From Escherichia coli (GTDB taxonomy: Bacteria > Pseudomonadota > Gammaproteobacteria > Enterobacterales > Enterobacteriaceae), in NCBI RefSeq assembly GCF_003018255.1, contig NZ_CP027440.1: 64,000 nt of DNA; one strand, written 5' to 3'. The notes under the pieces were generated by a model, which was given only the letters and a program-made list of their open reading frames with translations, was not told where the DNA came from and did not search any database. Positions within the stretch are counted from its first letter, which is position 1, and every line of letters begins with the position of its first letter. Positions 1,066-56,101 of the stretch are shown piece after piece. The position numbers and the translations under genes are program-made.

Positions 1066-1087
1066 ATTCAGTGCTCACTCAATATCA

Positions 1088-2761
1088 TCAGGAGAGATAT
1101 TCCGCCACCGGACCAAGCGCCAGGGCAGGGATAAAGGTCAGTGCGCCAACCAGCAACACGGTGCCGATTAACAGGCCAACAAACAGCGGGCCGTGCGTTG
1201 GCAGCGTGCCGGAGCTGGCGGGCTGGCTCTTTTTACTCACCAGCGAACCGGCAATTGCCATCACCGGGATAATTACCCCGAAGCGACCGACAAACATGCA
1301 GAACGCCAGCAAACAGTTCCAGAATGGAGAGTTGGCGCTTAATCCGGCAAAGGCGCTGCCGTTGTTGTTAGCGGCGGATGACACGGCGTACAGCACTTCG
1401 CTAAAACCATGCGGGCCAGGGTTGAGCATGGCGCTACGTCCGGCGTCGGTCATCATTGCCAGCGCCGCGCCCATCAGCGCCAGCGTTGGGGTGACCAGAA
1501 TCGCCAGCGCGGTCAGTTTCATCTCGCGTACGTCGATTTTTTTACCCAGATATTCCGGTGTACGACCAATCATCAGCCCAGCAATAAACACCGCCAGCAG
1601 GACAAACAGCATCATGCCGTAAAGACCAGAACCGACACCGCCGAACACCACTTCACCAATTTGCATCAGCCACATCGGCACCATGCCACCAAGAGCGGTA
1701 AACGAATCATGCATCGCAATCACCGCGCCACAGGAAGCCGCCGTAGTCACGACCGCAAACAGGCTACTGACCAGCACGCCGAAACGACTCTCTTTACCTT
1801 CCATATTGATGCTGCTGTCCGCGCCCAGTGCCAGCAGATGCGGATTACCCTGAACTTCTGCCCACATCACCACGCCTGTGCAGATGATAAAAATCACTGA
1901 CATCGCCCACAGCAACATGCGCCCCTGACGGCGATCGCCCGCCACTTCGCCAAAGGCAAAGCACAGCGCTGTTGGGATCAAGAAGATCGCCAGCATCTGC
2001 ACGAAGTTGGTCAGTGCGGTTGGGTTTTCAAACGGATGCGACGAGTTGGCATTAAAGAAGCCACCGCCGTTAGTGCCGAGCATCTTGATCGCTTCCTGAG
2101 AAGCTACAGGCCCCATGGGTAACAGCTGTTGCGCTCCTTCAACGGTATTCACCGCCTGATAGGGCAGAAAGTTTTGCAGCGCACCTTGTTGAATAAAAAA
2201 CAATGCGATCAACAACGCCACAGGGACTAGCACCCATAACGTGATGCGTAGCAGATCGACCCAGGCATTCCCGAGTGTGCTCATGCTCTGGCGGGTAAAT
2301 GCACGTATGAGGGCAAAAATCACCGCAATCCCGCTGGCGGCAGAAAGAAAGTTTTGCACCGTTAAGCCCGCCATCTGGCTGAAATAGCTCAACGTGGTTT
2401 CACCGCTGTAAGATTGCCAGTTGGTATTTGTGACAAAGCTGACGGCGGTATTCAGCGCCAGATCCCACGACAGTCCTGGCAACTGCTGTGGATTAAGCGG
2501 CAGATAGTGCTGACCGAGCAACATAAAAAACAGCACCGCCAGCCCCAGTATATTCAGGCCAAGAATGGCTGAGAGATACTGCTTCCAGTTCATCTCGCGG
2601 TCAGAGACGCCAAGCGCGCGAAAAAGTACGCGCTCAACGCCCGTCGTACCGGGAAGAGGAATGTCATTAATCAGCCGCGCCAGCCCGCTGCCTAAAGGAC
2701 GCGCCAGCACCATTAACACCAGTAAAAACGTGGCAATCAGTAAGAACCCTTGCGCAGCCAT
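1088..2761 (-). CDS. kdpA: Potassium-transporting ATPase subunit A (557 aa)
   Basis: ORF 1088..2905 contains the KdpA sequence from [24 protein letters not shown]; start ATG at 2759-2761 overlaps the kdpF stop (ATGA). Confidence 0.95.
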
Positions 2762-2850
2762 CAGAACGCCTCCGCATTGATCAGGGCATAAACCAGATAA
2801 CCCAGTAATAAAAACACCAGCAACACGCCGGCTATCACGCCTGCACTCAC
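2761..2850 (-). CDS. kdpF: KdpF, 29-aa membrane peptide of the Kdp complex, GTG start
   Basis: Translation [30 protein letters not shown] read from the C-terminus of ORF 2761..2964; stop overlaps kdpA start. Confidence 0.85.
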
Positions 2851-2923
2851 AGTGCACCTCCAGTGGCCTAAAAGTGATACCGGAAGAGTAGAATTCTGGC
2901 TGCAAAGATTTCGCAAAAATCTG

Positions 2924-2955
2924 CGGGCGGGGTGTAAAAAAAGTATAAAAATGGC
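2924..2955 (-). promoter_or_regulatory. Probable KdpE response-regulator box upstream of kdpF
   Basis: Minus-strand sequence CATTTTTATACTTTTTTTACACCCCGCCCG with TTTATA/TTTACA half-sites, about 75-105 bp upstream of the kdpF start; matches the KdpE operator as I remember it. Confidence 0.55.
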
Positions 2956-3162
2956 AAAAGCCATGATTTAACTAATGTTTAGTATTAATTTAACCTTTGT
3001 GTAACTTAATTACGGTATGAATGTAAATAAACCATCAATAAGCAAAAATAAGTGGTCGGATGAGTAGTAAAATTACACAAAAGGCGGTACTATTTTCATC
3101 AGATAAACAAATTCATTTTTCCGGTGCTATTCACCGGGTAGATACAAAAGGGGGAGAAAAGT

Positions 3163-3369
3163 ATGGAACTCTACAGAGAATATCCTGCATGGCTTATCTT
3201 TTTACGCCGTACTTATGCGGTTGCAGCGGGCGTTCTGGCGCTGCCTTTCATGCTTTTCTGGAAAGACCGCGCCCGCTTTTACAGCTACCTGCACCGCGTC
3301 TGGTCGAAAACCAGCGATAAACCGGTGTGGATGGATCAGGCCGAAAAGGCGACTGGTGATTTTTACTGA
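3163..3369 (+). CDS. ybfA: Small conserved membrane protein YbfA (68 aa)
   Basis: [71 protein letters not shown]; GGAG-type RBS upstream. Confidence 0.85.
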
Positions 3370-3393
3370 TTGCTGAGTTCTGAATACATTGAA

Positions 3394-3427
3394 AACCGCC
3401 AGCGGAAACGCTGGCGGTTTTTTTTGT
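3394..3427 (+). terminator. Rho-independent terminator after ybfA
   Basis: Hairpin CCGCCAGCG-GAAA-CGCTGGCGG followed by a run of 8 T. Confidence 0.8.
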
Positions 3428-3613
3428 ATCAGGAAGATGTTCAGAGGAATATTTAGACACCGTTATACCAATCGAAACATATATTCATGAAATATATATA
3501 AATATTTTCCTAATTGTTCTTATCTGACAGATATCTCACTTAAGGCTTTCTTATAAATCTGTAGGGTTTCGCCTGTCAGCAGACAAATAACCCGATAAAA
3601 CAAGGATGAGCAG

Positions 3614-6600
3614 ATGAGCGGAAAACCGGCGGCGCGTCAGGGCGACATGACGCAGTATGGCGGTAGCATTGTTCAGGATTCAGCCGGGGTACGTATTGGT
3701 GCCCCCACCGGCGTGGCCTGTTCGGTGTGCCCCGGCGGGGTGACGTCCGGCCATCCGGTCAATCCGCTGCTCGGTGCGAAGGTCCTTCCCGGCGAAACCG
3801 ACCTTGCCCTGCCCGGCCCGCTGCCGTTCATCCTCTCCCGCACCTACAGCAGTTACCGGACAAAAACGCCCGCGCCGGTGGGGAGCCTCGGCCCCGGCTG
3901 GAAAATGCCTGCGGATATCCGCTTACAGCTGCGCGATAACACACTGATACTCAGTGATAACGGCGGCAGAAGCCTGTATTTTGAGCACCTGTTTCCCGGT
4001 GAGGACGGTTACAGCCGCAGCGAGTCACTCTGGCTGGTGCGCGGCGGCGTGGCGAAACTGGATGAAGGTCACCGGCTGGCCGCACTCTGGCAGGCGCTGC
4101 CGGAAGAGCTTCGCCTGAGTCCGCATCGTTATCTGGCGAAGAACAGTCCGCAGGGGCCGTGGTGGGTATTCGGCTGGTGTGAGCGGGTGCCGGAGGCGGA
4201 TGAGGTGCTGCCTGCGCCGCTGCCGCCGTACCGGATACTGACCGGGCTGGTGGACCGCTTCGGGCGCACACAGACGTTTCACCGTGAGGCTGGCGGCGAA
4301 TTCAGCGGCGAAATCACCGGCGTGACCGACGGCGCAGGCCGTCACTTCCGGCTGGTACTGACCACGCAGGCGCTGCGGGCAGAAGAGGCCCGGCAGAAGG
4401 CCACTTCCGGCGGGACGGAACCGTCCGCTTTTCCTGATACCCAGCCGGACTACACGGAATATGGCCGGGACAACGGTATCCGTCTGTCTGCCGTGTGGCT
4501 GACGCACGACCCGGAATACCCGGAGAATTTACCTGCCGCGCCGCTGGTACGCTATGGCTGGACGCCGCGCGGCGAACTGGCGGCGGTGTATGACCGCAGC
4601 AATACACAGGTGCGCAGCTTTACTTACGATGATAAATACCGGGGCCGGATGGTGGCGCACCGTCACACGGGCCGGCCGGAAATCCGTTACCGTTACGACA
4701 GTGACGGGCGGGTGACAGAACAGCTAAACCCGGCAGGCTTAAGCTACACGTATCAGTATGAGAAAGACCACATCACCATCACCGACAGCCTGGACCGCCG
4801 TGAAGTGCTGCACACGCAGGGCGAAGGCGGGCTGAAGCGGGTGGTGAAAAAGGAACACGCGGACGGCAGCGTCACGCAGAGTCAGTTTGACGCGGTGGGC
4901 AGGCTTAAGGCACAGACGGATGCCGCAGGCCGGACGACTGAGTACAGCCCGGATGTGGTGACCGGACTCATCACGCGCATCACCACGCCGGATGGCAGGG
5001 CATCGGCGTTTTACTATAACCACCACAGCCAGTTAACGTCAGCCACCGGGACTGACGGGCTGGAGTTGCGCAGGGAATATGATGAATCCGGCCGTCTGAT
5101 TCAGGAAACTGCCCCTGACGGCGATATCACCCGCTACCGTTATGATAATCTACACAGTGAATTACCCTGCGCAACGGAAGATGCCACCGGCAGCCGGAAA
5201 ACCATGACATGGAGCCGTTACGGTCAGTTGCTGACCGTCACTGACTGTTCCGGTTATGTAACCCGTTATGACCATGACCGTTTTGGTCAGATGACGGCGG
5301 CGCACCGCGAGGAAGGGCTGAGTCAGTATCGCGCATACGACAGCCGTGGACAGTTAATTGCGGTGAAAGACATGCAGGGCCATGAAACGCGGTATGAATA
5401 CAACGCCGCCGGTGACCTGACCGCCGTCATTGCCCCGGACGGCAGCAGAAACGGGACACAGTACGATACGTGGGGAAAGGCCATCCGTACCACGCAGGGT
5501 GGTCTGACGCGCAGTATGGAATACGATGCTGCCGGACGGGTCATCCGCCTGACCAGTGAAAACGGCAGCCACACCACCTTCCGTTACGATGTACTCGACC
5601 GGCTGATACAGGAAACCGGCTTTGACGGCCGCACACAGCGTTATCATCACGACCTGACCGGTAAACTTATCCGCAGCGAGGATGAGGGGCTGGTCACCCA
5701 CTGGCACTATGACGAAGCAGACCGCATCACGCACCGCACCGTGAAGGGTGAAACCGCAGAACAGTGGCGGTACGACGAACGCGGCTGGCTGACACAAATC
5801 AGCCATCTCAGCGAAGGCCACCGGGTGACGGTGCATTACGGGTATGATGAGAAAGGCCGCCTGACCGGTGAGCGCCAGACGGTACATCACCCGCAGACGG
5901 AAGCACTGCTCTGGCAGCATGAGACCAGACATGCGTACAACGCGCAGGGGCTGGCGAACCGCTGTATACCGGACAGCCTGCCCGCCGTGGAATGGCTGAC
6001 TTACGGCAGCGGCTGGCTGGCAGGCATGAAACTCGGCGACACACCGCTGGTGGATTTCACCCGTGACCGCCTGCACCGGGAAACGCTGCGCAGCTTCGGC
6101 CGTTATGAACTCACCACCGCTTATACCTCTGCCGGGCAGTTACAGAGCCAGCACCTGAACAGCCTGCAGTATGACCGCGATTACACCTGGAACGACAACG
6201 GCGAACTCATCCGCATCAGCAGCCCGCGACAGACCCGGAGTTACAGCTACAGCGACTCCGGCAGGCTGACCGGCGTCCACACCACCACCTCAAATCTGGA
6301 TATCCGCATCCCGTATGCCACGGACCCGGCAGGTAACCGCCTGCCCGACCCGGAGCTGCACCCGGACAGCACCCTCAGCATGTGGCCGGATAACCGTATC
6401 GCCCGTGACGCGCACTATCTTTACCAGTATGACCGTCACGGCAGGCTGACAGAGAAAACCGACCTCATCCCGGAAGGGGTTATCCGCACGGATGATGAGC
6501 GGACTCACCGGTACCATTACGACAGCCGGCACCGGCTGGTGCACTACACGCGGACACAATATGCAGAGCCGCTGGTCGAAAGTCGCTATCTTTACGACCC

Positions 6601-7300
6601 GCTGGGGCGCAGGGTGGCAAAACGGGTATGGCGGCGTGAACGGGACCTGACGGGCTGGATGTCGCTGTCACGGAAACCGGAAGTGACCTGGTACGGCTGG
6701 GACGGCGACCGGCTGACCACAATACAGAACGACAGAACCCGCATCCAGACGGTTTATCAGCCGGGGAGCTTCACGCCACTCATCAGGGTCGAAACTGCCA
6801 CCGGTGAGCTGGCGAAAACGCAGCGCCGCAGCCTGGCGGATGCGCTTCAGCAGTCCGGCGGTGAAGACGGTGGCAGTGTGGTGTTCCCGCCGGTGCTGGT
6901 GCAGATGCTCGACCGGCTGGAAAGTGAAATCCTGGCTGACCGGGTGAGTGAGGAAAGCCGCCGCTGGCTGGCATCGTGCGGCCTGACGGTGGAGCAGATA
7001 CAAAACCAGATGGACCCGGTGTACACGCCGGCGCGAAAAATCCACCTGTACCACTGCGACCATCGCGGCCTGCCGCTGGCGCTTGTCAGCACGGAAGGGG
7101 CAACAGAATGGTGCGCAGAATACGATGAATGGGGCAACCTGCTGAATGAAGAGAACCCGCACCAGCTGCAGCAGCTCATCCGCCTGCCGGGTCAGCAGTA
7201 TGATGAGGAGTCCGGCCTGTATTACAACCGCCACCGCTATTATGACCCGCTGCAGGGGCCAGGGAAAGATCACGTAACGCTGCTTTTTTGTACTAAATAA
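3614..7300 (+). CDS. rhsC: Rhs core protein of the RhsA/B/C subfamily (1228 aa), C-terminally truncated just before the DPxGL boundary; no toxin tip
   Basis: GC-rich ORF with YD-repeat core; N-terminus [21 protein letters not shown]; ends ...[13 protein letters not shown] then 13 unrelated codons ([13 protein letters not shown]) and stop. Confidence 0.9.
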
Positions 7301-8255
7301 TTCGCATTTTATGTTTAAAAATTGAGATATTCCTCATTACCTAAAGCTGTTTTTCATTGCTTATACATGATCAAATACTCCTTACATAATTAAGGAGAAC
7401 AAAATGGAACTTAAAAAATTGATGGAGCATATTTCTATTATCCCAGATTACAGACAAGCCTGGAAAGTGGAACATAAATTGTCTGATATTCTACTGTTGA
7501 CTATTTGTGACGTTATTTCTGGTGCAGAAGGTTGGGAAGATATAGAGGATTTTGGGGAAACACATCTCGATTTTTTAAAACAATATGGTGATTTTGAAAA
7601 TGGTATTCCTGTTCACGATACCATTGCCAGAGTTGTATCCTGTATCAGTCCTGCAAAATTTCACGAGTGCTTTATTAACTGGATGCGTGACTGCCATTCT
7701 TCAGATGATAAAGACGTCATTGCAATTGATGGAAAAACGCTCCGGCACTCTTATGACAAGAGTCGCCGCAAGGGAGCGATTCATGTCATTAGTGCGTTCT
7801 CAACAATGCACAGTCTGGTCATCGGACAGATCAAGACGGATGAGAAATCCAATGAGATCACAGCTATCCCGGAACTTCTTAACATGCTGAATATTAAAGG
7901 AAAAATAATCACAACTGATGCGATGGGTTGCCAGAAAGATATTGCAGAGAAGATACAAAAACAGGGCGGTGATTATTTATTCGCTGTAAAAGGAAACCAG
8001 GGGCGGCTAAATAAAGCCTTCGAGGAAAAATTTCCGCTGAAAGAATTAAATAATCCAGAGCATGGCAGTTACGCAATGAGTGAAAAGAGTCACGGCAGAG
8101 AAGAAATCCGTCTTCATATTGTTTGCGATGTCCCTGATGAACTTATTGATTTCACGTTTGAATGGAAAGGGCAGCCATGGACAGAAAATATCTGGCGTCA
8201 GTCCTTGCGGGGAGCGTGCTTTCGTAATTTTGCCCTGCTACAACAGGATTAACTT
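7258..8255 (+). mobile_element. H-repeat (ISAs1-family) element remnant fused to the 3-prime end of the Rhs core
   Basis: Rhs homology stops after the DPLQG codons at about 7257; AT-rich leader then an H-repeat transposase ORF with an internal deletion; no terminal inverted repeat seen at the right end. Confidence 0.7.
7404..8252 (+). pseudogene. H-repeat-associated (ISAs1-family) transposase, internally deleted and frameshifted (282 codons; intact homologs are about 378 aa as I recall)
   Basis: N-terminus [35 protein letters not shown] typical of YhhI/YdcC-like H-repeat proteins; after ...FEWKG the frame changes and the expected C-terminus ([16 protein letters not shown]) is readable in another frame at 8177-8227. 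Confidence 0.75.
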
Positions 8256-13454: not shown

Positions 13455-14380
13455 AGATTATTCGTGCGGGTATGTATACCACTGTGCAGGATGGCGGTCG
13501 TCACGGTTTTCGCCAGTCGGGTATCAGCCACTGCGGCGCACTGGATATGCCTGCGCTGCGCATTGCTAACCTACTGGTGGGTAATGACGCCAATGCCCCC
13601 GCGCTGGAGATCACGCTCGGTCAGTTAACGGTTGAGTTCGAAACTGATGGGTGGTTTGCTCTGACGGGGGCCGGTTGCGAAGCGCGGCTGGATGATAACG
13701 CCGTCTGGACCGGCTGGCGATTGCCGATGAAAGCAGGCCAGCGTTTAACGCTTAAACGCCCGCAGCACGGGATGCGCAGTTATCTGGCGGTCGCGGGTGG
13801 TATTGATGTTCCGCCGGTAATGGGGTCATGCAGCACCGATCTCAAAGTGGGGATTGGCGGGCTGGAAGGCCGTTTACTGAAGGATGGTGACCGACTCCCG
13901 ATTGGCAAATCGAAGCGTGATTTTATGGAAGCGCAGGGCGTTAAACAGCTGCTGTGGGGCAACCGCATTCGCGCCTTGCCGGGGCCGGAATATCATGAGT
14001 TCGATCGCGCCTCGCAGGATGCATTCTGGCGTTCGCCCTGGCAGCTTAGCTCGCAAAGTAACCGAATGGGCTATCGCTTACAGGGGCAAATTTTAAAACG
14101 CACCACCGATCGCGAACTGTTATCTCACGGTTTGTTACCGGGCGTGGTGCAGGTGCCACATAACGGGCAGCCGATTGTGTTGATGAACGACGCACAGACC
14201 ACCGGTGGTTATCCGCGTATTGCCTGTATCATTGAGGCTGATATGTACCATCTGGCGCAAATTCCGCTCGGTCAGCCGATTCATTTTGTCCAGTGTTCAC
14301 TGGAAGAGGCACTGAAAGCACGGCAAGATCAACAACGTTATTTCGAACAATTAGCGTGGCGGCTGCACAATGAAAATTGA
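13448..14380 (+). CDS. pxpC: 5-oxoprolinase subunit C (310 aa)
   Basis: [36 protein letters not shown]...; overlaps pxpB end. Confidence 0.9.
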
Positions 14381-15104
14381 CCTGAACGCCGATCTGGGCG
14401 AAGGCTGCGCCAGCGACGCAGAGCTATTAACGCTGGTTTCCTCTGCCAATATTGCCTGTGGATTTCATGCAGGCGATGCGCAAACCATGCAGGCTTGCGT
14501 GCGTGAAGCCATAAAAAATGGTGTTGCGATTGGCGCTCACCCGAGTTTTCCCGACAGGGAAAATTTTGGGCGCAGCGTCATGCAGCTGCCGCCAGAAACC
14601 ATTTACGCCCAGACGCTGTATCAAATTGGCGCGCTGGCAACGATTGCCCGTGCGCAAGGCGGTGTTATGCGTCATGTCAAACCTCACGGCATGTTATACA
14701 ACCAGGCAGTGAAAGAGGCACAACTGGCAGACGCCATCGCCAGAGCGGTATACGCTTGCGATCCGGCATTGATTCTCGTCGGACTGGCGGGAAGCGAGCT
14801 GATTCGTGCAGGCAAGCAATATGGCCTGACAACGCGCGAGGAAGTGTTTGCCGATCGCGGTTACCAGGCTGACGGCTCGCTGGTGCCGCGAAGCCAGCCA
14901 GGCGCGTTGATTGAAGACGAAGAACAGGCGCTGGCGCAAACGTTGGAGATGGTGCAACACGGCAGAGTCAAAAGTATCACCGGCGAATGGGCAACGGTCA
15001 CGGCGCAAACGGTCTGCCTGCATGGCGACGGCGAGCACGCACTGGCATTCGCCCGCCGACTACGCTCTACATTTGCCGAAAAGGGGATTGTTGTCGCAGC
15101 ATAA
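14370..15104 (+). CDS. pxpA: 5-oxoprolinase subunit A, LamB/YcsF family (244 aa)
   Basis: [43 protein letters not shown]... Confidence 0.9.
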
Positions 15105-15139
15105 CCCCGTTTAATAAAGAATGAAAAAAGGATATCACC

Positions 15140-15931
15140 ATGCCTGAAGGCCCGGAGATCCGCCGTGCAGCGGATAACCTGGAGGCGGCGATCAAAGGCA
15201 AACCACTAACTGATGTCTGGTTTGCCTTCCCGCAGTTAAAACCTTATCAATCACAACTTATCGGTCAACACGTTACCCATGTGGAAACGCGTGGTAAGGC
15301 GTTGTTAACTCATTTTTCCAACGACTTAACGCTCTACAGCCATAATCAGCTTTACGGCGTCTGGCGCGTGGTTGATACCGGCGAAGAGCCGCAGACTACG
15401 CGAGTATTGCGGGTAAAACTGCAAACGGTTGACAAAACCATTCTGCTTTATAGCGCCTCGGATATTGAGATGTTGACGCCGGAACAACTGATCACGCATC
15501 CGTTTTTACAACGAGTCGGCCCCGATGTGCTGGATCCGAATCTGACGCCGGAGGTGGTAAAGGAACGGTTATTGTCGCCGCGCTTTCGTAACCGTCAGTT
15601 TGCTGGATTACTGCTCGATCAGGCGTTTCTGGCTGGGCTTGGCAATTATTTGCGGGTGGAGATCCTCTGGCAGGTTGGGTTGACTGGAAATCATAAAGCG
15701 AAAGATCTCAGTGCGGCGCAACTGGATGCACTCGCACACGCGTTACTGGATATTCCTCGATTTTCCTACGCTACGCGGGGGCAGGTGGATGAGAATAAGC
15801 ATCATGGGGCGCTGTTTCGCTTTAAGGTTTTTCATCGTGATGGCGAACTGTGCGAACGCTGTGGCGGCATCATTGAGAAAACCACGCTGTCATCTCGCCC
15901 GTTTTACTGGTGCCCTGGCTGTCAGCACTAG
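15140..15931 (+). CDS. nei: Endonuclease VIII (263 aa)
   Basis: [21 protein letters not shown]... with C-terminal zinc finger [25 protein letters not shown]. Confidence 0.95.
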
Positions 15932-16974
15932 GCCGTACGTTTCGGCGCATAGGTTGAAATAAACCGCGCAATGGCAGGTCCCGTCAGCAAAATACTGAAC
16001 AGGCGCAGGGTTTGCATCGCCATGATGAGCGCCATATCGGCATTGCTCCCTGCGGCGATGACCGCCACGGTATCAAGCCCGCCGGGGCTGGTGGCGAGGT
16101 AGGCGGTCATAAAATCAATATGCATAAACCGGGTCAGCCCCCACGCCATACCCGCACAAATAGCCAGCAGAGCAAAAATCGACAGCAGGATTTGCGGTAG
16201 CGGGCGCAATGCCCGCAGTAAGATTTGTTTATCGAAACCAAGACCAATCCGCCAACCAATTGCCATATACGCCATCGCAAGCAGCCATTCCGGTAGTTCG
16301 ATGGTGATGAGCTGACCAGACTGGAGCACTGCGCCCGCCAGCATCGGGATGAGCATCGTGCCGGAAGGAAGACGTAGCAAGCATCCCACTGTACCGGCAA
16401 CGACCGCGAGCAAAATCGTAAGCAGGAGATTAATGCTCACTGGCGGAAACCAGACGATCTGCTGGTTAACCGCTTCAGCGTTATCGCCCAGCATCATGCG
16501 GGTGACCAGAACAGCGGCCCCTGCGACGAACAGCACTCGCAGATATTGCATAAACGCCACCAGGCGAATATCTGCGCCGTAATCTTGCGCCATAGCGACC
16601 ATTGCCGCCGCGCCGCCAGGAGAAGAACCCCAGGCACCGGTATTTCCAGGCAGTGAGCTATAGCGCACCAATAACCAACCCACGATGGCGCTGGAAAGTA
16701 ACGTCACCAGTAAAATAGCTAACACAATCGGCCAGTTCACCGCTAGCGTGGTCAGGATCGAACCGGTCAGGTTTTGCGCAATCATGCAGCCAAGAATGGC
16801 CTGGGCGGCGAGAAAAGCGGAGCGGGGAAGTTGCAGAGTAATTCCGCGCATACTAAAGATGATCCCGGCGATCATCGGCCCAAGTAATAGCGCCGCCGGG
16901 AGATGAACCGCGAGGAAACCAATTGAAAGGAGAAGTGAGAGCACACATAACATTCCCCACTGCAAAACTGGCAT
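15928..16974 (-). CDS. abrB: AbrB-family membrane transporter (348 aa)
   Basis: Start chosen at [23 protein letters not shown] inside the longer ORF 15928..17052; convergent 4-nt overlap with nei. Confidence 0.85.
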
Positions 16975-17126
16975 CCTTCGTTCCCTCATTATTTTTTCTT
17001 TGGTGTATCGATACAGCATAAAGAAAGCCGGGCCAGGAAAAAATAACAGCAATCAAGGAAAAGGGGAAAATCAGCAATTTTCTGAAAGAGAGGCCCTTTA
17101 CTAACTGCAAAGGGCATCATGATAAA

Positions 17127-18188
17127 TTAGTTATAGTTAATCTTAAAAAGCACCACTGTATCGAAGGGACCCGCTTCGATGGGGGTGCCGGGAATGGACG
17201 AAAGTTCAGCCGTATAGGTTTTTTCGTAGATCAGCATATCGCTGGTGAAATCAGCATATTCGCTGTATTTGTTGAAAGTATAGGGTGAAGAATTTTCATC
17301 CAGCAAACGTAGCTTCAGTCCATTACCAATCAGCAGTGCTTTATCCTCTTCAATCAATGTTTCTTCGGTATAAAACGAAGAGCTGACCTTAAATCCGTCG
17401 GTGCACTGGTCATTTTGTGATTTTGTCGTCTTAATACTGAATGTTTTCGACATTGTGTGGCGGCGAATATCCAGCAGGTTAAATTTACCAAAATCAATCA
17501 CCTGTGTTTCTGGTGAAATAGAAAAATTGACGCTGCAATCCAGTACACGAATGTTTTCCAGACCAGTAATATGGTATTTCAGGTTTTGGGCGGTAGGGTC
17601 TTCGTTAACGCTACCGGCACCATCAAATTGCACGACGATGTAGTCGCTAAGCGAACTTTGATAATCATGCGGCGGTATTTCGCGAATCTTAACGTATAAC
17701 CGCATACGAGCAAGAAAGGTTCGCGACATGTGAATATTAGCGGGGTCACCCGAGCATATTTTGTTCTGCCAGCCCATCGCGATAATCTGCTCAGGGGTAT
17801 AAATGTTAATGTTCTTACTGTCGATACACTGGTTGGTGTCGATGCGGCTTTTCCCCAGACTGGCATCGTAATCGACACCATTGTATGTCACGCCGAGTTG
17901 ATAATAACGATCCTGTACCCCCGGGTAGGGGTTTACCCATGCGTAGACATGTTCGCTTTCAAAGTTGCCGTTGGTATTGTTGTCACAATAGACGGGAATT
18001 TTAATATCGTCAGATTCCCAGATCTTATCGCCGGGTTTGGCATTACCTGGCACAGCAAAGGGTTGAATCGCTTCCGATTTTTCTACCGTTCCGCCGGAAG
18101 TACCAAAATAGCAGTTCAGCGCTAGCGCAGACTTCAATGGCAGAAATACCAGACAGATGACGAGCAACACTCCCTTGCCAGCACTCAT
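17127..18188 (-). CDS. ybgO: Fimbrial adhesin-like protein (353 aa)
   Basis: Signal peptide [23 protein letters not shown]; last gene of a chaperone-usher operon; start overlaps ybgP stop. Confidence 0.85.
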
Positions 18189-18913
18189 TTCTTCGCCTCC
18201 ACTGCTTGTAAACGGCATTGTCCGCTGCAGTTGAGCGTCGTCATGCGTAACGCGCCGTAATCATCCATATAACCGAGATAAAACTGACTGCCGCTATAAC
18301 TTCCGGTGTTTGTAATTACTGTACTAAAAGGCGCAACCATCACGGTTTTGAAGCCGGGAAGAACGCCTTTTTCATTTCTCCCCAGATAGGCAATGGTCAG
18401 ATAATACGCGGTAGGATTTTTCAGTGTCAGTTGGTTGCCCTGCTGGCTGACCTGTAACTGCAGTTCGACCTTTTCTCCTGCTTTCTTGCGTAATGCAGCC
18501 GGTCGCCAGAATACCTTGATACGACTCTGAATGGCGACTTGCAGAACGGCATGGCCGCTGTTTTTTTCTGGGGAGGGAGGAATTTCACGCATATTGTAGA
18601 AAAATAGCGTTTCGCGATCGCCCGGTAATTTTGTGGTCGAGGCTTGCTTTACTATCCGTACCTGCGTTGTTGCTTTCGGTTCCAGACGTTGTATCGGTGG
18701 CAGGGCAACCAGAAGATCATCGCTTTTCTCCCCTTTTTCATTTTCGAGCCAGGAATAAGCGAGGTAGGGGAGTTTATCGCTACGATTATCCACGCGCAGA
18801 CTGGTAGCTTTATCATTAGCGTTAAACACAATACGAGTGCGATCGGGTTGTAGTGCAGCGTGGCTGCACAGACTGGCAACCAACAACAAAAGGGGTAGTC
18901 CTTTCATAAATGT
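18185..18913 (-). CDS. ybgP: Periplasmic fimbrial chaperone, PapD-like (242 aa)
   Basis: [44 protein letters not shown]... Confidence 0.88.
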
Positions 18914-18930
18914 CATTTTCATTTCCTTAA

Positions 18931-21390
18931 TTAATGACAAGGTAAAATCAGGCGATTTGCGGTGTCTTCCATATGTTCAGGAAGATGGAGCGAGCAACGC
19001 TGGCTATCACCCCAGATCACGGTAAATTGTTGATTTTCAGCGACTCCGCTTAACCAGGCATGTCCTTCCTCGCCAACCATCCCCACGCTAATGCCGCTGT
19101 TATCCTGGCGGATATCCGCACCGAGGGGAGGGAACTGACCGCTGGCGTTGCGAATGATGACGTTAACGTCTTTACCGGAACGGGAAGCCAGCGATTTGTA
19201 ACCTATCGCGCCTTCAATCCACGTTTCTTTGATAACGTTTTCTGCCACTGTTACGCCGTCGGGTAAGTCATTCATGTTCACCGCCACGGTGGAAGGCTGA
19301 TAACTGGAAATCAACGGCACCACCGCAATGCCAAAATGGTTGGTGTAGTCGAGATTGCCCTGAACCGGAATATCTGCCACGCCATCGGTACTGACCATCA
19401 GACGTGGTTCATTGGTGGAGCTGCGACGATGGAACGCCGCACCATATTGAGTTGCCGTGAAAGAACCGCTCCAGCTGCTGCTGACGGAACTGTAATCATT
19501 GGCGGCATAGGTACCAGAAATATCCCACTCACCCGCTGAACTCAGGTGCTGATAGTTACCGCTCACCTGGGCTCCATTATCCGGACGGTCGGATTGCAGT
19601 CCGGTAGACATGCCCCAGCTATTACGTTCATCTAACGTATCATTCCACGACATGCGGTGCGTGGTGCTGTGACTACTGTTTTGCATGTCATAACCGACCC
19701 GCCCCCCGTTACCGAAGGGGAGCGAAATCGACAGGTAAATCTGATTGTCGCGATCTTTATCTTCGTAATGGGTTGTATTGAATGACGTCGAGATCGAGAT
19801 ATCTCTCCAGTTACCAATATCAACATTAAAACCCGCCGTGATGTTGGCGGTCGTGGAGGCGTCTGCATTCCACCAGGTTTGATGCAGCAGGTTGGCGTAC
19901 AGATTGAGGTTCAGTGGGGTAATCGGTTGGCCCACGGATAAGCTGATCGTCTGTTTTTCGTCCTGCGCATCGCTGTTGTTGTATTTGTGATCCAGATAGT
20001 TGGCGTAGCTGTGAAAATGACGATCGGAGAAACGATAAGCGGCGAGCGAAATCGTGCTGTCGGTGGCATCCACTTGTTTGCTGTAATTAAAGCGGTAACT
20101 TAAGCCCCGCTCGTCCTGCTGAGTATCAAACTGACTACTGGCCCACGTGACATCAAACGACAATGCACCAAGCCACAGCATATTTTGCCCGATACCCATT
20201 GCGGCAGAATGGTAGTCGTCACCCGAAATCAGCAGGCCGCCGTACAGTGAGGTATTTGACAGCATCCCCCAGGAAACTTCATTGCTAAAAAAGGTTTCAT
20301 TTTCAGTTTGATGAGACATAGATGTTCGCGGCTGACCGGCAGCAAGTTTATAGCGAACCTGCCCCTGGCGCGTAAGGAAAGGCGTCGATGCTGCCGAAAC
20401 CTGGAAATTGTTCGCCCGACCATCTTCTTCCGTCACTTTGACATCTAACGTACCCTGGACGGACTGATTAAGGTCATCAATGATAAACGGACCTGGTGGG
20501 ACTTTCTTCTGGTAAATAACTCGCCCTGAGTGACTCACGGTGACGGTGGCGTTGGTTTGTGCAATGCCGCTGATTTGTGGGGCGTAGCCGCGTAGCTCCC
20601 ACGGTAACATCCGATCGTCACTTGCCAGTGCCGCGCCGGTATAAGAAAAGCCGTCGAAAATATTGGAACTGAAATCCGTTTCACCAAGGGTTAATTTTGA
20701 ACCTAATTGCGGTAATGGACGAAAAAGATAGGTGCGTGATATTTCGCCTGACTGTTCATGGTTATCATCGCTATCGGTCTGATTCAATTGGTAATCACTG
20801 CGTAAACGCCATGCTCCCGCGTTAATTCCGGCTGTTCCATAGGCGTTCAGGTTAGTGCTGTTGCTACCATCCTGTGGGCGGTAGCTGCTTGCAAACAGGT
20901 TGTAGTCCATCAGGACGCCGGCGACACCTTCTTTCCATGTTGAGGGGGGAGTCCAGTTATCTGAGTGCCACGCCAGCCAGGCTTGTGGAATAGTGATATT
21001 CAGTTGCTGGCTAGCCTGATCAAAAATGAAGAGAATTTCAGGCCGGGAGCTAAAATCGACGCACTGGTTTAACCGTGGTAACGACTGACGAACTTCAGGT
21101 TTTAAACCAAATTTATCTACCAGTAAATCATTAATACACGGAATGGTTTGGTCACCGTTCTTTTTCCAGTCAATTTTTTGTCCGTTACTGATTTGGTTGT
21201 TATTTACTGCAACGCTAACAAAATATTCACCGGGAACAATGACCCCTTTTCCCTTTAATAATGAAATATCAATGCGATCTCGCATCGATTTATCGAGGAC
21301 ATTCAGGTTGAATTCGACCGCCAATGCGCAAGGCATCGCCATGACCAGACAGGATATAAAAGAGAGTCGATAAATATTCACGGTGTCCAT
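18931..21390 (-). CDS. ybgQ: Fimbrial outer-membrane usher (about 819 aa)
   Basis: Large beta-barrel usher ORF; start taken at MDTVNIYRLSFISCLVMAMPCALA; exact start codon uncertain. Confidence 0.85.
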   Translation of the reverse strand: MDTVNIYRLSFISCLVMAMPCALAVEFNLNVLDKSMRDRIDISLLKGKGVIVPGEYFVSVAVNNNQISNGQKIDWKKNGDQTIPCINDLLVDKFGLKPEVRQSLPRLNQCVDFSSRPEILFIFDQASQQLNITIPQAWLAWHSDNWTPPSTWKEGVAGVLMDYNLFASSYRPQDGSNSTNLNAYGTAGINAGAWRLRSDYQLNQTDSDDNHEQSGEISRTYLFRPLPQLGSKLTLGETDFSSNIFDGFSYTGAALASDDRMLPWELRGYAPQISGIAQTNATVTVSHSGRVIYQKKVPPGPFIIDDLNQSVQGTLDVKVTEEDGRANNFQVSAASTPFLTRQGQVRYKLAAGQPRTSMSHQTENETFFSNEVSWGMLSNTSLYGGLLISGDDYHSAAMGIGQNMLWLGALSFDVTWASSQFDTQQDERGLSYRFNYSKQVDATDSTISLAAYRFSDRHFHSYANYLDHKYNNSDAQDEKQTISLSVGQPITPLNLNLYANLLHQTWWNADASTTANITAGFNVDIGNWRDISISTSFNTTHYEDKDRDNQIYLSISLPFGNGGRVGYDMQNSSHSTTHRMSWNDTLDERNSWGMSTGLQSDRPDNGAQVSGNYQHLSSAGEWDISGTYAANDYSSVSSSWSGSFTATQYGAAFHRRSSTNEPRLMVSTDGVADIPVQGNLDYTNHFGIAVVPLISSYQPSTVAVNMNDLPDGVTVAENVIKETWIEGAIGYKSLASRSGKDVNVIIRNASGQFPPLGADIRQDNSGISVGMVGEEGHAWLSGVAENQQFTVIWGDSQRCSLHLPEHMEDTANRLILPCH

Positions 21391-21440
21391 ACCTGATAAA
21401 TATTTGAAGAAAGGCAGCGATAGCGCCGCCAAAGTGATAC

Positions 21441-22007
21441 TTATTTATAATCCAGCACGTAGGTTGCATTCGCCGTAACTGCACCTGGCGTTACAGGTGT
21501 TGCCTGATCAATTTGTTCCATCCAGGCAAAGAAATTCAGCGTTTGCTCGCTGGAGGTCGGAGCCAGGTCGATATCTGGAGTCGCGGTGCCTAAAACGATA
21601 TTGCTTTGATCTTTATTCATTAAACGCACGCCGACACCGGTGGCTTCACCCGTGCTGGTGTTGTTGAGAATCGGATCTGCGCCGGTGGTTTTCGCTGAGC
21701 TGTCAAAGGTGACTGCAACTTTAGAAATCTTGCCGCCGGAACCGTTGTTGGAGTTTTCCAAATCGCAGTTGACTAAGCGCAGGTCGACAGCAACGGCATC
21801 GCTGTGATGTGACTGATTAATGTGGCTGGTGGTCACCTGACCGAGTTCAACCTCTTTATCAATATCATCCTGATGTATTTCACACGGTGCTTCAATAACT
21901 TCACCTTTAAAGTGAATTTCACCGGATCCTTCATCAGCCGCATAAACAGGTGCTGTGAATAGCAGAGATATGGCCAGTGCGGCCAATGTTTTTTGTCCTT
22001 TAAACAT
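21441..22007 (-). CDS. ybgD: Fimbrial major subunit (188 aa)
   Basis: MFKGQKTLAALAISLLFTAPVYA signal peptide; AGGA RBS 7 nt upstream. Confidence 0.88.
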   Translation of the reverse strand: MFKGQKTLAALAISLLFTAPVYAADEGSGEIHFKGEVIEAPCEIHQDDIDKEVELGQVTTSHINQSHHSDAVAVDLRLVNCDLENSNNGSGGKISKVAVTFDSSAKTTGADPILNNTSTGEATGVGVRLMNKDQSNIVLGTATPDIDLAPTSSEQTLNFFAWMEQIDQATPVTPGAVTANATYVLDYK

Positions 22008-22334
22008 AGCTGAGTCCTTTAAATAATGAGATAGAGTGTTGCGAGGCAAGAATATATTAACTGACAGTTGAATGTATTTGGTTTTATTTAACAATATTAA
22101 AAAGCTTGTTATATAAAGAATGGAATAATTGAGTGCATAAATTTATTGTTTAATGAGATGAAAGATGGGGTGGGATGGATATGCATAATTTTCATTGGGT
22201 TAACAATGCTACCGGCAGGAAAGTAAAAAAATAAACTTATCATTCTGCTCAGTATGTGGCTTGTCACATTTTTTCACCTTATTAATGGGTATTTGCATCT
22301 GGTTTAATTTTTACAATTTATTATGTTCAGCCAT

Positions 22335-22370
22335 ATAAAAAAGAACCCGCTCTATTAAAGGCGGGTCCGG
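22335..22370 (-). terminator. Rho-independent terminator after gltA
   Basis: Minus-strand hairpin GACCCGCC...GGCGGGTTC followed by a run of 6 T. Confidence 0.7.
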
Positions 22371-22396
22371 AAAGTAAACGGCTTAGCAATCAACCA

Positions 22397-23680
22397 TTAA
22401 CGCTTGATGTCGCTTTTAAAGTCGCGTTTTTCATATCCTGTATACAGTTGACGCGGACGGGCAATCTTCATACCGTCACTGTGCATTTCGCTCCAGTGGG
22501 CGATCCAGCCAACGGTGCGTGCCATAGCGAAGATCACGGTGAACATAGAAGACGGAATACCCATCGCTTTCAGGATGATACCAGAGTAGAAATCGACGTT
22601 CGGATAGAGTTTCTTCTCGATAAAGTACGGGTCGTTCAGCGCGATGTTTTCCAGCTCCATAGCCACTTCCAGCAGGTCATCTTTGGTACCCAGCTCTTTC
22701 AGCACTTCATGGCAGGTTTCACGCATTACGGTGGCGCGCGGGTCGTAATTTTTGTACACGCGGTGACCGAAGCCCATCAGGCGGAAAGAATCATTTTTAT
22801 CTTTCGCACGACGAACAAATTCCGGAATGTGTTTAACGGAGCTGATTTCTTCCAGCATTTTCAGCGCCGCTTCGTTAGCACCACCGTGCGCAGGTCCCCA
22901 CAGTGAAGCAATACCTGCTGCGATACAGGCAAACGGGTTCGCCCCCGAAGAGCCAGCGGTACGCACGGTGGAGGTGGAGGCGTTCTGTTCATGGTCAGCG
23001 TGCAGGATCAGAATACGGTCCATAGCACGTTCCAGAATCGGATTAACTTCATACGGTTCGCACGGCGTAGAGAACATCATATTCAGGAAGTTACCGGCGT
23101 AGGAGAGATCGTTGCGCGGGTAAACAAATGGCTGACCAATGGAATACTTGTAACACATCGCGGCCATGGTCGGCATTTTCGACAGCAGGCGGAACGCGGC
23201 AATTTCACGGTGACGAGGATTGTTAACATCCAGCGAGTCGTGATAGAACGCCGCCAGCGCGCCGGTAATACCACACATGACTGCCATTGGATGCGAGTCG
23301 CGACGGAAAGCATGGAACAGACGGGTAATCTGCTCGTGGATCATGGTATGACGGGTCACCGTAGTTTTAAATTCGTCATACTGTTCCTGAGTCGGTTTTT
23401 CACCATTCAGCAGGATGTAACAAACTTCCAGGTAGTTAGAATCGGTCGCCAGCTGATCGATCGGGAAACCGCGGTGCAGCAAAATACCTTCATCACCATC
23501 AATAAAAGTAATTTTAGATTCGCAGGATGCGGTTGAAGTGAAGCCTGGGTCAAAGGTGAATACACCTTTTGAACCGAGAGTACGGATATCAATAACATCT
23601 TGACCCAGCGTGCCTTTCAGCACATCCAGTTCAACAGCTGTATCCCCGTTGAGGGTGAGTTTTGCTTTTGTATCAGCCAT
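22397..23680 (-). CDS. gltA: Citrate synthase (427 aa)
   Basis: [71 protein letters not shown]... Confidence 0.97.
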
Positions 23681-24388
23681 TTAAGGTCTCCTTAGCGCCT
23701 TATTGCGTAAGACTGCCGGAACTTAAATTTGCCTTCGCACATCAACCTGGCTTTACCCGTTTGTTATTTGGCTCGCCGCTCTGTGAAAGAGGGGAAAACC
23801 TGGGTACAGAGCTCTGGGCGCTTGCAGGTAAAGGATCCATTGATGACGAATAAATGGCGAATCAAGTACTTAGCAATCCGAATTATTAAACTTGTCTACC
23901 ACTAATAACTGTCCCGAATGAATTGGTCAATACTTCCACACTGTTACATAAGTTAATCTTAGGTGAAATACCGACTTCATAACTTTTACGCATTATATGC
24001 TTTTCCTGGTAATGTTTGTAACAACTTTGTTGAATGATTGTCAAATTAGATGATTAAAAATTAAATAAATGTTGTTATCGTGACCTGGATCACTGTTCAG
24101 GATAAAACCCGACAAACTATATGTAGGTTAATTGTAATGATTTTGTGAACGGCCTATACTGCCGCCAGGTCTCCGGAACACCCTGCAATCCCGAGCCACC
24201 CAGCGTTGTAACGTGTCGTTTTCGCATCTGGAAGCAGTGTTTTGCATGACGCGCAGTTATAGAAAGGACGCTGTCTGACCCGCAAGCAGACCGGAGGAAG
24301 GAAATCCCGACGTCTCCAGGTAACAGAAAGTTAACCTCTGTGCCCGTAGTCCCCAGGGAATAATAAGAACAGCATGTGGGCGTTATTC

Positions 24389-24778
24389 ATGATAAGAAAT
24401 GTGAAAAAACAAAGACCTGTTAATCTGGACCTACAGACCATCCGGTTCCCCATCACGGCGATAGCGTCCATTCTCCATCGCGTTTCCGGTGTGATCACCT
24501 TTGTTGCAGTGGGCATCCTGCTGTGGCTTCTGGGTACCAGCCTCTCTTCCCCTGAAGGTTTCGAGCAAGCTTCCGCGATTATGGGCAGCTTCTTCGTCAA
24601 ATTTATCATGTGGGGCATCCTTACCGCTCTGGCGTATCACGTCGTCGTAGGTATTCGCCACATGATGATGGATTTTGGCTATCTGGAAGAAACATTCGAA
24701 GCGGGTAAACGCTCCGCCAAAATATCCTTTGTTATTACTGTCGTGCTTTCACTTCTCGCAGGAGTCCTCGTATGGTAA
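24389..24778 (+). CDS. sdhC: Succinate dehydrogenase cytochrome b556 subunit (129 aa)
   Basis: [34 protein letters not shown]... Confidence 0.95.
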
Positions 24779-25119
24779 GCAACGCCTCCGCATTAGGACG
24801 CAATGGCGTACATGATTTCATCCTCGTTCGCGCTACCGCTATCGTCCTGACGCTCTACATCATTTATATGGTCGGTTTTTTCGCTACCAGTGGCGAGCTG
24901 ACATATGAAGTCTGGATCGGTTTTTTCGCCTCTGCGTTCACCAAAGTGTTCACCCTGCTGGCGCTGTTTTCTATCTTGATCCATGCCTGGATCGGCATGT
25001 GGCAGGTGTTGACCGACTACGTTAAACCGCTGGCCTTGCGCCTGATGCTGCAACTGGTGATTGTCGTTGCTCTGGTGGTTTACGTGATTTATGGATTCGT
25101 TGTGGTGTGGGGTGTGTGA
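24772..25119 (+). CDS. sdhD: Succinate dehydrogenase hydrophobic anchor subunit (115 aa)
   Basis: [37 protein letters not shown]... Confidence 0.95.
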
Positions 25120-26885
25120 TGAAATTGCCAGTCAGAGAATTTGATGCAGTTGTGATTGGTGCCGGTGGCGCAGGTATGCGCGCGGCGCTGCAAATTTCCC
25201 AGAGCGGCCAGACCTGTGCGCTGCTCTCTAAAGTCTTCCCGACCCGTTCCCATACCGTTTCTGCGCAAGGCGGCATTACCGTTGCGCTGGGTAATACCCA
25301 TGAAGATAACTGGGAATGGCATATGTACGACACCGTAAAAGGGTCGGACTATATCGGTGACCAGGACGCGATTGAATATATGTGTAAAACCGGGCCGGAA
25401 GCGATTCTGGAACTGGAACATATGGGCCTGCCGTTCTCGCGTCTTGATGATGGTCGTATCTATCAACGTCCGTTTGGCGGTCAGTCGAAAAACTTCGGCG
25501 GCGAGCAGGCGGCACGTACTGCGGCGGCAGCTGACCGTACCGGTCACGCACTGTTGCACACCCTTTATCAGCAGAACCTGAAAAACCACACCACCATTTT
25601 CTCCGAGTGGTATGCGCTGGATCTGGTGAAAAACCAGGATGGCGCGGTGGTCGGTTGTACCGCACTGTGCATCGAAACTGGTGAAGTGGTTTACTTCAAA
25701 GCTCGCGCTACCGTGCTGGCGACTGGCGGGGCAGGGCGTATTTATCAGTCCACTACCAACGCCCACATTAACACTGGCGACGGCGTCGGCATGGCTATCC
25801 GTGCAGGCGTACCAGTGCAGGATATGGAAATGTGGCAGTTCCACCCGACCGGTATTGCCGGTGCGGGCGTACTGGTCACCGAAGGTTGCCGTGGTGAAGG
25901 CGGTTATCTGCTGAACAAACATGGCGAACGCTTTATGGAGCGTTATGCGCCGAACGCCAAAGACCTGGCGGGCCGTGACGTGGTGGCGCGTTCCATCATG
26001 ATCGAAATCCGTGAAGGCCGCGGCTGTGATGGTCCGTGGGGGCCACACGCAAAACTGAAACTTGACCATCTGGGGAAAGAAGTTCTCGAATCCCGTCTGC
26101 CGGGTATTCTGGAACTCTCCCGCACCTTCGCTCACGTTGATCCGGTGAAAGAGCCGATTCCGGTAATTCCAACCTGTCACTACATGATGGGCGGTATTCC
26201 GACCAAAGTGACCGGTCAGGCGCTGACTGTGAATGAGAAAGGCGAAGATGTGGTTGTTCCGGGGCTGTTTGCCGTTGGTGAAATCGCTTGTGTATCGGTA
26301 CATGGCGCTAACCGTCTGGGCGGCAACTCGCTGCTGGACCTGGTCGTATTTGGTCGTGCGGCAGGTCTGCATCTGCAAGAGTCTATTGCCGAGCAGGGCG
26401 CACTGCGCGATGCCAGCGAGTCTGATGTAGAAGCGTCTCTGGATCGCCTGAACCGCTGGAACAATAACCGTAACGGTGAAGATCCGGTGGCGATCCGTAA
26501 AGCACTGCAAGAATGTATGCAGCATAACTTCTCGGTCTTCCGTGAAGGTGATGCGATGGCGAAAGGGCTTGAGCAGTTGAAAGTTATCCGCGAGCGTCTG
26601 AAAAATGCCCGTCTGGATGACACTTCCAGCGAGTTCAACACCCAGCGCGTTGAGTGCCTGGAACTGGATAACCTGATGGAAACGGCGTATGCAACGGCTG
26701 TTTCTGCCAACTTCCGTACCGAAAGCCGTGGCGCGCATAGCCGCTTCGACTTCCCGGATCGCGATGATGAAAACTGGCTGTGCCACTCCCTGTATCTGCC
26801 AGAGTCGGAATCCATGACGCGCCGAAGCGTCAACATGGAACCGAAACTGCGCCCGGCATTCCCGCCGAAGATTCGTACTTACTAA
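25119..26885 (+). CDS. sdhA: Succinate dehydrogenase flavoprotein subunit (588 aa)
   Basis: [24 protein letters not shown]... FAD-binding fold; start inside the longer ORF 25107..26885. Confidence 0.97.
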
Positions 26886-39681: not shown

Positions 39682-39712
39682 TCAGGCCATCTTCGGATGG
39701 CCTGAGATTGTT
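39682..39712 (+). terminator. Probable terminator after mngB
   Basis: Hairpin TCAGGCCATC-TTCG-GATGGCCTGA followed by a T-rich stretch. Confidence 0.55.
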
Positions 39713-39787
39713 GATAAACAAGTTTGTTAGCTTACGCAGATACCAGATTTGACCTGCGTGAGAACCGCAGGCCATTTATCATTTCAG

Positions 39788-41185: not shown

Positions 41186-41490
41186 AACGCTGTCCTGAAA
41201 TATAGACGTTAAACAACCCCCTGTATGGCGAGGGTAATTTTGTCTTTCCGGTCAGCAGCCAGCAAAAGGGAAAGAAAACGCGCGTAGTGTATGTGGCGAT
41301 AGCAAGTGTTACAAGTGGTAAATCTGGCTTATTGTTAAAGAGGAATTATCTTTTGTGAAGTCTTTTAAGGCCATGACTCATTCAATTTAACCGGACATAG
41401 ATAATATATAACATAGGGTATCTAAATTTATCATTGTATACTTGTCATAATTCAAGTTGCATGTGCTGCATCGATGTTCGCTCACCCAGG

Positions 41491-56099: not shown

Positions 56100-56101
56100 C
56101 C

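Follow-up and report, generated by a model that had tools for sequence, protein, structure and literature searches.

Gene content and integrity of the ybg locus

The DNA analysed here is a 64,000-nucleotide stretch of Escherichia coli (assembly GCF_003018255.1, contig NZ_CP027440.1), which is referred to below as the window. Between gltA and abrB/nei, the usual E. coli chromosomal site of the ybg genes, it carries four minus-strand genes that we identify, with a probability of about 0.9, as a complete copy of the Ybg chaperone-usher fimbrial operon, a well-known set of four genes (Table 1). The gene order at the locus is pxpA-nei-abrB-ybg-gltA-sdhC, with sdhCDAB beyond gltA. The finding as such is already known: an annotated and common E. 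coli operon is undamaged in one more strain.

The listing of open reading frames contains four long minus-strand frames across 17127-22094, and the gene starts adopted here are those used by the NCBI Prokaryotic Genome Annotation Pipeline (PGAP) on E. coli JNE23-011 (NZ_AP045067.1), which differs from the window at a single position over 14000-25400 (11.4 kb). In the PGAP annotation of JNE23-011 the genes ybgO, ybgP and ybgQ are named, the fourth coding sequence is labelled 'fimbrial protein', and there are no pseudogene flags. Gene-by-gene global alignment to K-12 and O157 revealed neither internal stops nor frameshifts in any of the four genes, and gaps relative to K-12 are confined to ybgP and ybgQ, where they consist of single codons that keep the frame. 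Indeed, the lengths of YbgD, YbgQ, YbgP and YbgO are 188, 819, 243 and 353 residues in the window and 188, 818, 242 and 353 residues in K-12 MG1655. The first-pass annotation had described an intact operon at 17127-22007 with genes for a subunit, an usher, a chaperone and an adhesin-like protein. The open reading frames, the Pfam domains, the PGAP annotation of JNE23-011 and the alignment to K-12 bear out both the exact coordinates and the gene identities and order; the comparison of lengths that it had proposed agrees as well, and the frameshifts that it had named beforehand as evidence to the contrary were not found upon exact alignment. It had also implied near-identity to K-12, which does not hold: the operon DNA is 89% identical and the YbgD protein only 79%.

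Table 1. Features of the ybg locus in the window, with DNA identities to K-12 and O157:H7
Feature	Position	Strand	Description and basis	Identity to K-12 (%)	Identity to O157:H7 (%)
ybgO	17127-18188	minus	predicted two-domain tip adhesin, 353 residues; open reading frame and PGAP coding sequence in JNE23-011	90.8	80.3
ybgP	18185-18916	minus	periplasmic chaperone, 243 residues; open reading frame and PGAP coding sequence in JNE23-011	87.7	76.3
ybgQ	18931-21390	minus	outer-membrane usher, 819 residues; open reading frame and PGAP coding sequence in JNE23-011	91.3	77.3
ybgD	21441-22007	minus	major fimbrial subunit (pilin), 188 residues; open reading frame and PGAP coding sequence in JNE23-011	74.6	70.9
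ybgD-gltA spacer	22008-22396		389 bp, 32.4% GC	65.9	53.3
AT-rich upstream (promoter/regulatory) region of ybgD	22008-22336	minus	about 30% GC; composition		
gltA intrinsic terminator hairpin	22337-22366	minus	ACCCGCC...GCGGGT followed by a T-run; read from the sequence		
GC-rich hairpin with U-rich tail in the ybgD-ybgQ gap	21413-21430	minus	scan for terminator-like structures and folding		
Hairpin 12 nt 3' of the ybgO stop	17093-17115	minus	scan; -15.6 kcal/mol, z-score -2.9		

The stop codon of ybgP overlaps the start codon of ybgO by 4 nt (ATGA), the gap between ybgQ and ybgP measures 14 nt with AAGGAA preceding the annotated ybgP start, and AAGGA is found 8 nt 5' of the ATG of ybgD, in a Shine-Dalgarno region that is conserved across alleles. 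For three alleles, the hairpin in the ybgD-ybgQ gap has a folding energy of -14 to -17 kcal/mol (z-scores of -1.8 to -3.2), and its stem GGCGGC/GCCGCC is kept in all ybg alleles, in a surrounding of 50 nt that is only 62-84% identical. This hairpin may be a partial terminator or an mRNA-stabilising element that favours an excess of pilin. The hairpin behind ybgO is a candidate operon terminator with a poor T-tail. Scanning 16800-24400 against Rfam at E ≤ 1 returned no RNA families.

The Ybg proteins

Judged by eye, each of the four proteins appears to start with a Sec signal peptide that combines a hydrophobic core with a cleavage site of the A-x-A type; by the same inspection the signal peptide of YbgD and its mature start read MFKGQKTLAALAISLLFTAPVYA/ADEG and those of YbgQ ...CLVMAMPCALA/VEF. 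YbgD matches the Pfam family Fimbrial (6.4e-30), and FimA is the closest pilin among those with solved structures. Its N-terminus carries a FimA-like donor-strand segment, GEIHFKGEVIEAPC, and its C-terminus the motif YVLDYK; neither GEIHFKGEVIEAPC nor ATYVLDYK varies between alleles. The YbgD protein is equal in length to that of K-12 but only 78.7% identical to it. The first ~135 nt and the last 27 nt of ybgD are conserved across alleles, while its middle part is 57-73% identical. The window has perfect matches to the EzClermont primers for ybgD, with a predicted product of 177 bp.

YbgQ contains the Pfam domains PapC_N, Usher (E = 6.5e-187) and PapC_C and gives a full-length alignment with PapC (residues 25-818) at 525 bits, as compared to 273 bits for FimD. 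It is 93.7% identical to K-12 YbgQ, with which it appears to group on the basis of this identity and the gene name given by PGAP, and differs from it in length by one in-frame codon. Usher phylogeny and the position of the locus are the two criteria by which Wurpel 2013 defines the Ybg type. YbgP contains PapD_N and PapD_C, is 90.1% identical to its K-12 counterpart, and has PapD as its closest solved structure (170 bits, with about 102 bits for FimC). The residues aligned to Arg8 and Lys112 of the PapD cleft are conserved, and the YbgP segments DRTRIVF and RIKVFWRP align to DRTRAVF and KIKLFYRP of PapD. By sequence, the assembly machinery encoded by ybgQ and ybgP is thus judged to be Pap-like, and YbgQ would be nearer to the PapC-type than to the FimD-type ushers, which is a ranking by similarity and not a phylogeny. 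We take Ybg to belong to the pi clade of chaperone-usher systems in the usher phylogeny of Nuccio and Baumler. Among the NCBIfam models, the best matches are Salmonella StdB for the usher (630 bits) and SteC, StfD and StdC for the chaperone; none of these scores comes near the equivalog cut-off, which for the 630-bit match is 1,289 bits, and the Salmonella Std, Ste and Stf systems are relatives and not orthologues.

The AlphaFold2 model of YbgO, built with 39 homologues, has a mean predicted local distance difference test score (pLDDT) of 88.8 and shows two beta-rich domains: a receptor-binding domain at about residues 24-217 and a pilin domain at about residues 218-353 that has no N-terminal donor strand. 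The mature protein begins straight at the receptor-binding domain (LNCYFG...). The best Foldseek matches of the model are full-length two-domain tip adhesins (LpfD, FimH, CupB6, CsuE, PapG and CfaE), followed by single pilins over the C-terminal domain. The model therefore suggests that YbgO is a two-domain tip adhesin of the FimH/PapG type. In a sequence search of the PDB, chains 9RX0 and 9RWW matched residues 24-217/222 of YbgO almost exactly, which indicates that its receptor-binding domain has already been crystallised, and 9RWU, 9RWV and 9RWE were found as further relatives. These five entries are labelled only 'Fimbrial protein' or 'Pilus assembly protein', and our literature search found no paper on the YbgO structure, its receptor binding or its PDB entries.

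YbgO has 96.9% amino acid identity to its K-12 counterpart. It has exactly 353 residues in all five lineages that were compared, including a metagenome-assembled genome that is not E. coli, and in these lineages the receptor-binding domain is slightly more conserved than the pilin domain. YbgO homologues are restricted to Enterobacteriaceae. In a metagenome-assembled genome with a 75%-identical YbgO, the operon lies between gltA and nei, and abrB is absent.

Relationship to other fimbrial operons

The operon shares with the Ybg fimbriae of K-12 its site, gene order, strand and protein lengths to within one residue. It differs from them in that K-12 has a minority ybgD allele whereas the window has one of the commonest class, and in a synonymous divergence of 0.36-1.4, as compared to about 0.06 in the flanking genes. 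The Yqi operon (ygiL-yqiG-yqiH-yqiI), which encodes adhesin I of extraintestinal pathogenic E. coli (ExPEC), is paralogous and has the same order of genes for a pilin, an usher, a chaperone and an adhesin of about 353 residues. Operons of this type in Enterobacter and Salmonella encode adhesins that are 59-62% identical to YbgO and have different, analogous hairpins after the pilin gene. However, they are located next to ribB and glgS, with ribB on one side of the locus and zupT or dsbB on the other, and their receptor-binding domain is far more divergent. In the stretches compared, the paralogous operon spans 3167-8062 in Enterobacter and 3179-8074 in Salmonella; we presume this ribB-side operon to be yqi from the E. 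coli map and the Pfam families of the flanking genes. The approximately 60%-identical homologues of YbgO in these two genera were therefore not accepted as ybg, because they belong to the paralogous ribB-locus operon.

With P (Pap) pili the Ybg system has in common that its usher and chaperone have PapC and PapD as their nearest counterparts of solved structure, that the usher gene precedes the chaperone gene, and that there is a two-domain tip adhesin, PapG being among the structural matches of YbgO. Unlike pap, the ybg locus lacks subunits of the PapH, PapK, PapE and PapF types as well as PapI and PapB, has no upstream GATC, and lies outside pathogenicity islands. Type 1 (Fim) fimbriae resemble Ybg in their pilin, in having FimH among the best full-length structural matches of YbgO, and in combining a conserved adhesin with a variable major subunit. 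In contrast to ybg, however, the chaperone gene precedes the usher gene in fim, the ybg locus has no invertible promoter element and no recombinase genes, and FimD and FimC score only about half of PapC and PapD against YbgQ and YbgP.

The region upstream of ybgD

The GC content of the spacer between ybgD and gltA is far below that of the whole window (51.2%) and, of 1,273 sliding segments of 389 bp, only 17 have a lower value. The first-pass annotation had pointed to an AT-rich upstream region at 22008-22330, and this part indeed has a GC content of 30.0%. The last ~60 bp of the spacer on the gltA side represent the gltA terminator and not ybg promoter DNA; the stem of this terminator does not vary among six allele classes. 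Most of the middle part of the spacer cannot be aligned with O157.

For the gltA-ybgD spacer of K-12, both an H-NS site and a site for the RpoD holoenzyme (TAAACA-16-TAAAAT) have been listed on the basis of systematic evolution of ligands by exponential enrichment (SELEX) (Shimada 2014; PMC3946193). In the window, the H-NS motif shows a modest enrichment in the spacer, with 5.1 versus 1.25 hits per kb when up to 2 mismatches are allowed, and 22008-22336 is a likely target of H-NS. Wurpel 2013, citing Korea 2010, describes cryptic chaperone-usher fimbriae that are repressed by H-NS (PMC3559732), and another report quotes Korea 2010 for the observation that constitutively expressed Ybg raised adherence to bladder cells (PMC6033998). 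The latter report also detected ybg transcripts in wild Shiga toxin-producing E. coli (STEC) strains, differing between STEC groups. The earlier description of the operon as usually cryptic is hence supported for K-12 by the literature (PMC3946193 and PMC3559732); its extension to the present allele is an inference, because the spacer is only 66% identical.

A Pap-type switch of phase by Dam and Lrp can be excluded, because the spacer has no GATC (there is none in 21929-22501) and no genes for PapI/PapB-type regulators are present at the locus. A Fim-type invertible promoter was rejected as well: only weak AT-rich inverted repeats (75-85% complementary) were found, and there is no recombinase gene nearby. 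The single difference from JNE23-011 is located at 22259, where the window has G and both JNE23-011 and WR3-3 have A. It breaks a palindrome (ATGTGAC-AA-GTCACAT, about 250 nt 5' of ybgD) that is perfect in these two strains and overlaps the -35 part of the only sigma-70-like match in the region (see below). We do not consider this palindrome a regulatory site, as it is absent from the other allele classes and its spacing is wrong for CRP. Likewise, a 52-codon frame starting with GTG (22109-22267) was judged spurious, since the DNA there is AT-rich and shows little conservation from one allele to another.

Divergence of the ybg alleles

Sliding identity to K-12 and O157 delimits a divergent block whose edges lie at about 16.6 kb and at the gltA terminator (22.4 kb). 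In the flanks, identity to either strain is 96-100%, as compared to 63-97% for K-12 and 38-84% for O157 within the block. The right edge is sharp, with identities to K-12 and O157 of 96-98% just past the gltA terminator. As determined by the Nei-Gojobori method, the synonymous divergence (dS) of the ybg genes amounts to 0.36-1.38 relative to K-12 and to 1.5-1.9, which is saturated, relative to O157, as compared to 0.01-0.14 in pxpA, nei, gltA and sdhC. The ratio of nonsynonymous to synonymous divergence (dN/dS) is 0.04-0.12 for all four genes and relative to both strains. Such low values across so deep a divergence imply that all four genes are under purifying selection. The adjacent abrB gene (15928-16974) has a somewhat raised dS of 0.16-0.22, versus about 0.06-0.1 for nei and pxpA, at a dN/dS of 0.02-0.05; this is consistent with hitch-hiking beside the variable ybg block.

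For the comparison with other Escherichia, the proportion of synonymous differences (pS) was used. In gltA, pS is 0.06-0.125 within E. coli and 0.30 between E. coli and E. marmotae. In ybgD, it is 0.31 between the window and E. marmotae but 0.63 between the window and K-12, so that by this measure the ybgD gene of the window is nearer to that of E. marmotae than to that of K-12. The ybg genes of the O157 type differ from every other allele with a pS of 0.61-0.72. By their identity to the ybgD gene and spacer of the window, genomes fell into discrete classes: 1,905 were in the 95-99% class, 1,049 in the 90-95% class, 458 in the 80-90% class and 1,348 in the 60-80% class. The class at 95-99%, to which the window belongs, is the commonest, and K-12 and O157 are both found in the class at 60-80%.

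Occurrence of intact copies

Some match to ybg was present in 4,762 of 5,426 complete E. coli genomes, and 4,156 (77%) had a full-length locus, defined as an unbroken match to 80% or more of it; about 23% of the complete genomes thus have no full-length copy. In an evenly spaced sample of 13 full-length loci, 10 were annotated as intact. The other three were broken by a frameshift in ybgQ, by an IS1 insertion together with a stop codon in ybgQ, and by frameshifts in ybgO and ybgD. Where the locus is deleted, either a 3' remnant of ybgO or nothing is left between abrB and gltA. These figures agree with the account of Ybg as a core-associated fimbrial type that is 'not intact in many strains' (Wurpel 2013; PMC3559732). 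An intact ybg operon is nevertheless the norm, and intactness in itself is therefore not notable. IS1 insertions recur at the locus, once between ybgQ and ybgP and twice beside ybgD (ETEC1720 being among the strains concerned), and IS1 appears to be a repeated route to inactivation of ybg.

Proposed assembly and alternative explanations

The way in which the pilus may be built follows from what is typical of the family, and is supported by the domain and structure matches described above. All four proteins would be exported by the Sec system. In the periplasm, the PapD-like YbgP would cap the incomplete immunoglobulin-like folds of YbgD and YbgO, whereupon the PapC-like usher YbgQ would recruit the two-domain adhesin YbgO first and then polymerise YbgD beneath it via donor-strand exchange. 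The product would be a minimal pilus, namely a YbgD rod that is tipped directly by YbgO and has no adaptor or terminator subunits. The conserved hairpin that follows ybgD probably shifts the balance towards pilin relative to the machinery, and the ATGA overlap would couple the translation of ybgP and ybgO. Transcription most likely begins in the 30%-GC spacer 5' of ybgD, and H-NS probably silences the operon under laboratory conditions, as has been reported for K-12. No regulator or phase switch encoded by the operon is present at the ybg locus.

Several observations weigh against a complete and expressible operon. As regards the promoter, the spacer contains a single, weak sigma-70-like site (22267-22239, GTGACA-17-AATGAT, 9/12), the number of promoter-like sites in the region is 6, as compared to 9.1 expected from shuffling, and the RpoD hexamers of K-12 are degraded in the window to TGAACA-16-TTAAAC. 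Because of these degraded hexamers and the limited identity of the spacer, silencing of this particular allele by H-NS is a reasonable inference drawn from composition. In addition, the C-terminal match of YbgO to the Pfam family Fimbrial scores 23.9 bits, below the cut-off of 25.6 bits, the signal peptides were judged by inspection rather than by a predictor, and the roles of the hairpins are read from position and conservation only.

Could the reading frames be intact and the operon nonetheless be functionally dead, either as a recently silenced relic or through loss of its promoter? This would fit with the promoter search, in which no convincing promoter turned up and the predicted K-12-type promoter proved not to be conserved, and with the frequent loss or breakage of the locus, that is, with the approximately 23% of complete genomes that have no full-length copy, the frameshifts or IS1 insertions in 3 of the 13 sampled full-length loci, and the account in Wurpel 2013 (PMC3559732). 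We nevertheless consider it improbable. A dN/dS of 0.04-0.12 over a very deep divergence speaks for long-term purifying selection and is unlike that of a relic, the lineages have retained exact gene lengths, conservation among alleles includes the Shine-Dalgarno region and the first 135 nt of ybgD, and transcription of ybg has been observed in wild strains of STEC (PMC6033998). The fact that the operon is intact and all four of its genes are under purifying selection indicates that ybg is a working gene set and not a decaying relic. Even less probable, to an extent that we regard it as very remote, is the recent horizontal import of a foreign fimbrial operon in place of the native ybg. The identity to K-12 (89% for the operon DNA, 75% for ybgD and 66% for the spacer, versus 97-100% for the flanks) and the GC content of the operon (45-50%, lower than that of the flanking genes) might be taken to suggest such an event. 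However, the position, order and lengths of the genes are the same in K-12, O157, E. marmotae and a cryptic-clade Escherichia, the ybgD-spacer allele of the window belongs to the commonest E. coli class (1,905 genomes at 95-99%), and there are no mobile-element genes, tRNA gene or direct repeats at the edges of the block. A foreign island was thus rejected on the grounds of synteny and absent mobility genes, and replacement of alleles at an old, resident locus is the best reading of the divergence.

The simplest reading of the divergence of the Ybg operon is that old allele lineages have been swapped by recombination on the conserved flanks and kept functional by selection, with the exposed pilin and the regulatory DNA turning over fastest. 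In its full form this reading holds that ybg is kept in Escherichia as several ancient allele lineages, some of which predate the split between E. coli and E. marmotae; that these lineages are exchanged as homologous-recombination cassettes between the gltA terminator and abrB; and that, with all four genes under purifying selection, the pilin and promoter are the most variable parts and the receptor-binding domain of YbgO the most conserved. We would give it about even odds. If it is true, this 'cryptic' fimbria would have a use in nature, with a conserved receptor as its target, and immune, phage or regulatory pressure would turn over its exposed and regulatory parts. Ybg would then join fimA, flagellin and the O-antigen genes as loci under long-term diversifying pressure, which would argue for a real ecological role that could be probed with the crystallised adhesin domain. 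Deep allelic variation is a familiar pattern for surface structures. A high density of variants in ybgP has been noted earlier in STEC (PMC12547504), and a non-exhaustive literature search found no explicit treatment of deep ybg lineages. The allelic depth is the only feature of the locus that might merit a separate follow-up. Since strains vary widely in both the pilin and the promoter region, data on expression, H-NS and serology that were obtained with K-12 are not simply transferable, and the practical value of the present comparison is the caution that K-12 is a poor proxy for the ybg locus.

Other features of the window

Between mngB and cydA, at about 39700-46700, the window contains an RtcB-family gene, a truncated gene for methylaspartate mutase E, glmL, glmS and two hypothetical genes. 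This region, in which the GC content falls locally to 26-31%, the lowest values anywhere in the window, looks like a strain-variable island. The RHS element region at 1-7260 differs in structure from that of JNE23-011: positions 2856-7259 align at 98.9% to positions 1-4409 of the stretch of JNE23-011 that was compared, and the RHS core protein of JNE23-011 is frameshifted according to PGAP. Lastly, seven tRNA genes (Lys and Val) followed by two repeats of about 126 nt that are annotated as RtT sRNA are found at 55800-57060, and a self-BLAST comparison revealed a tandem duplication of 210 nt at 56697-57062.

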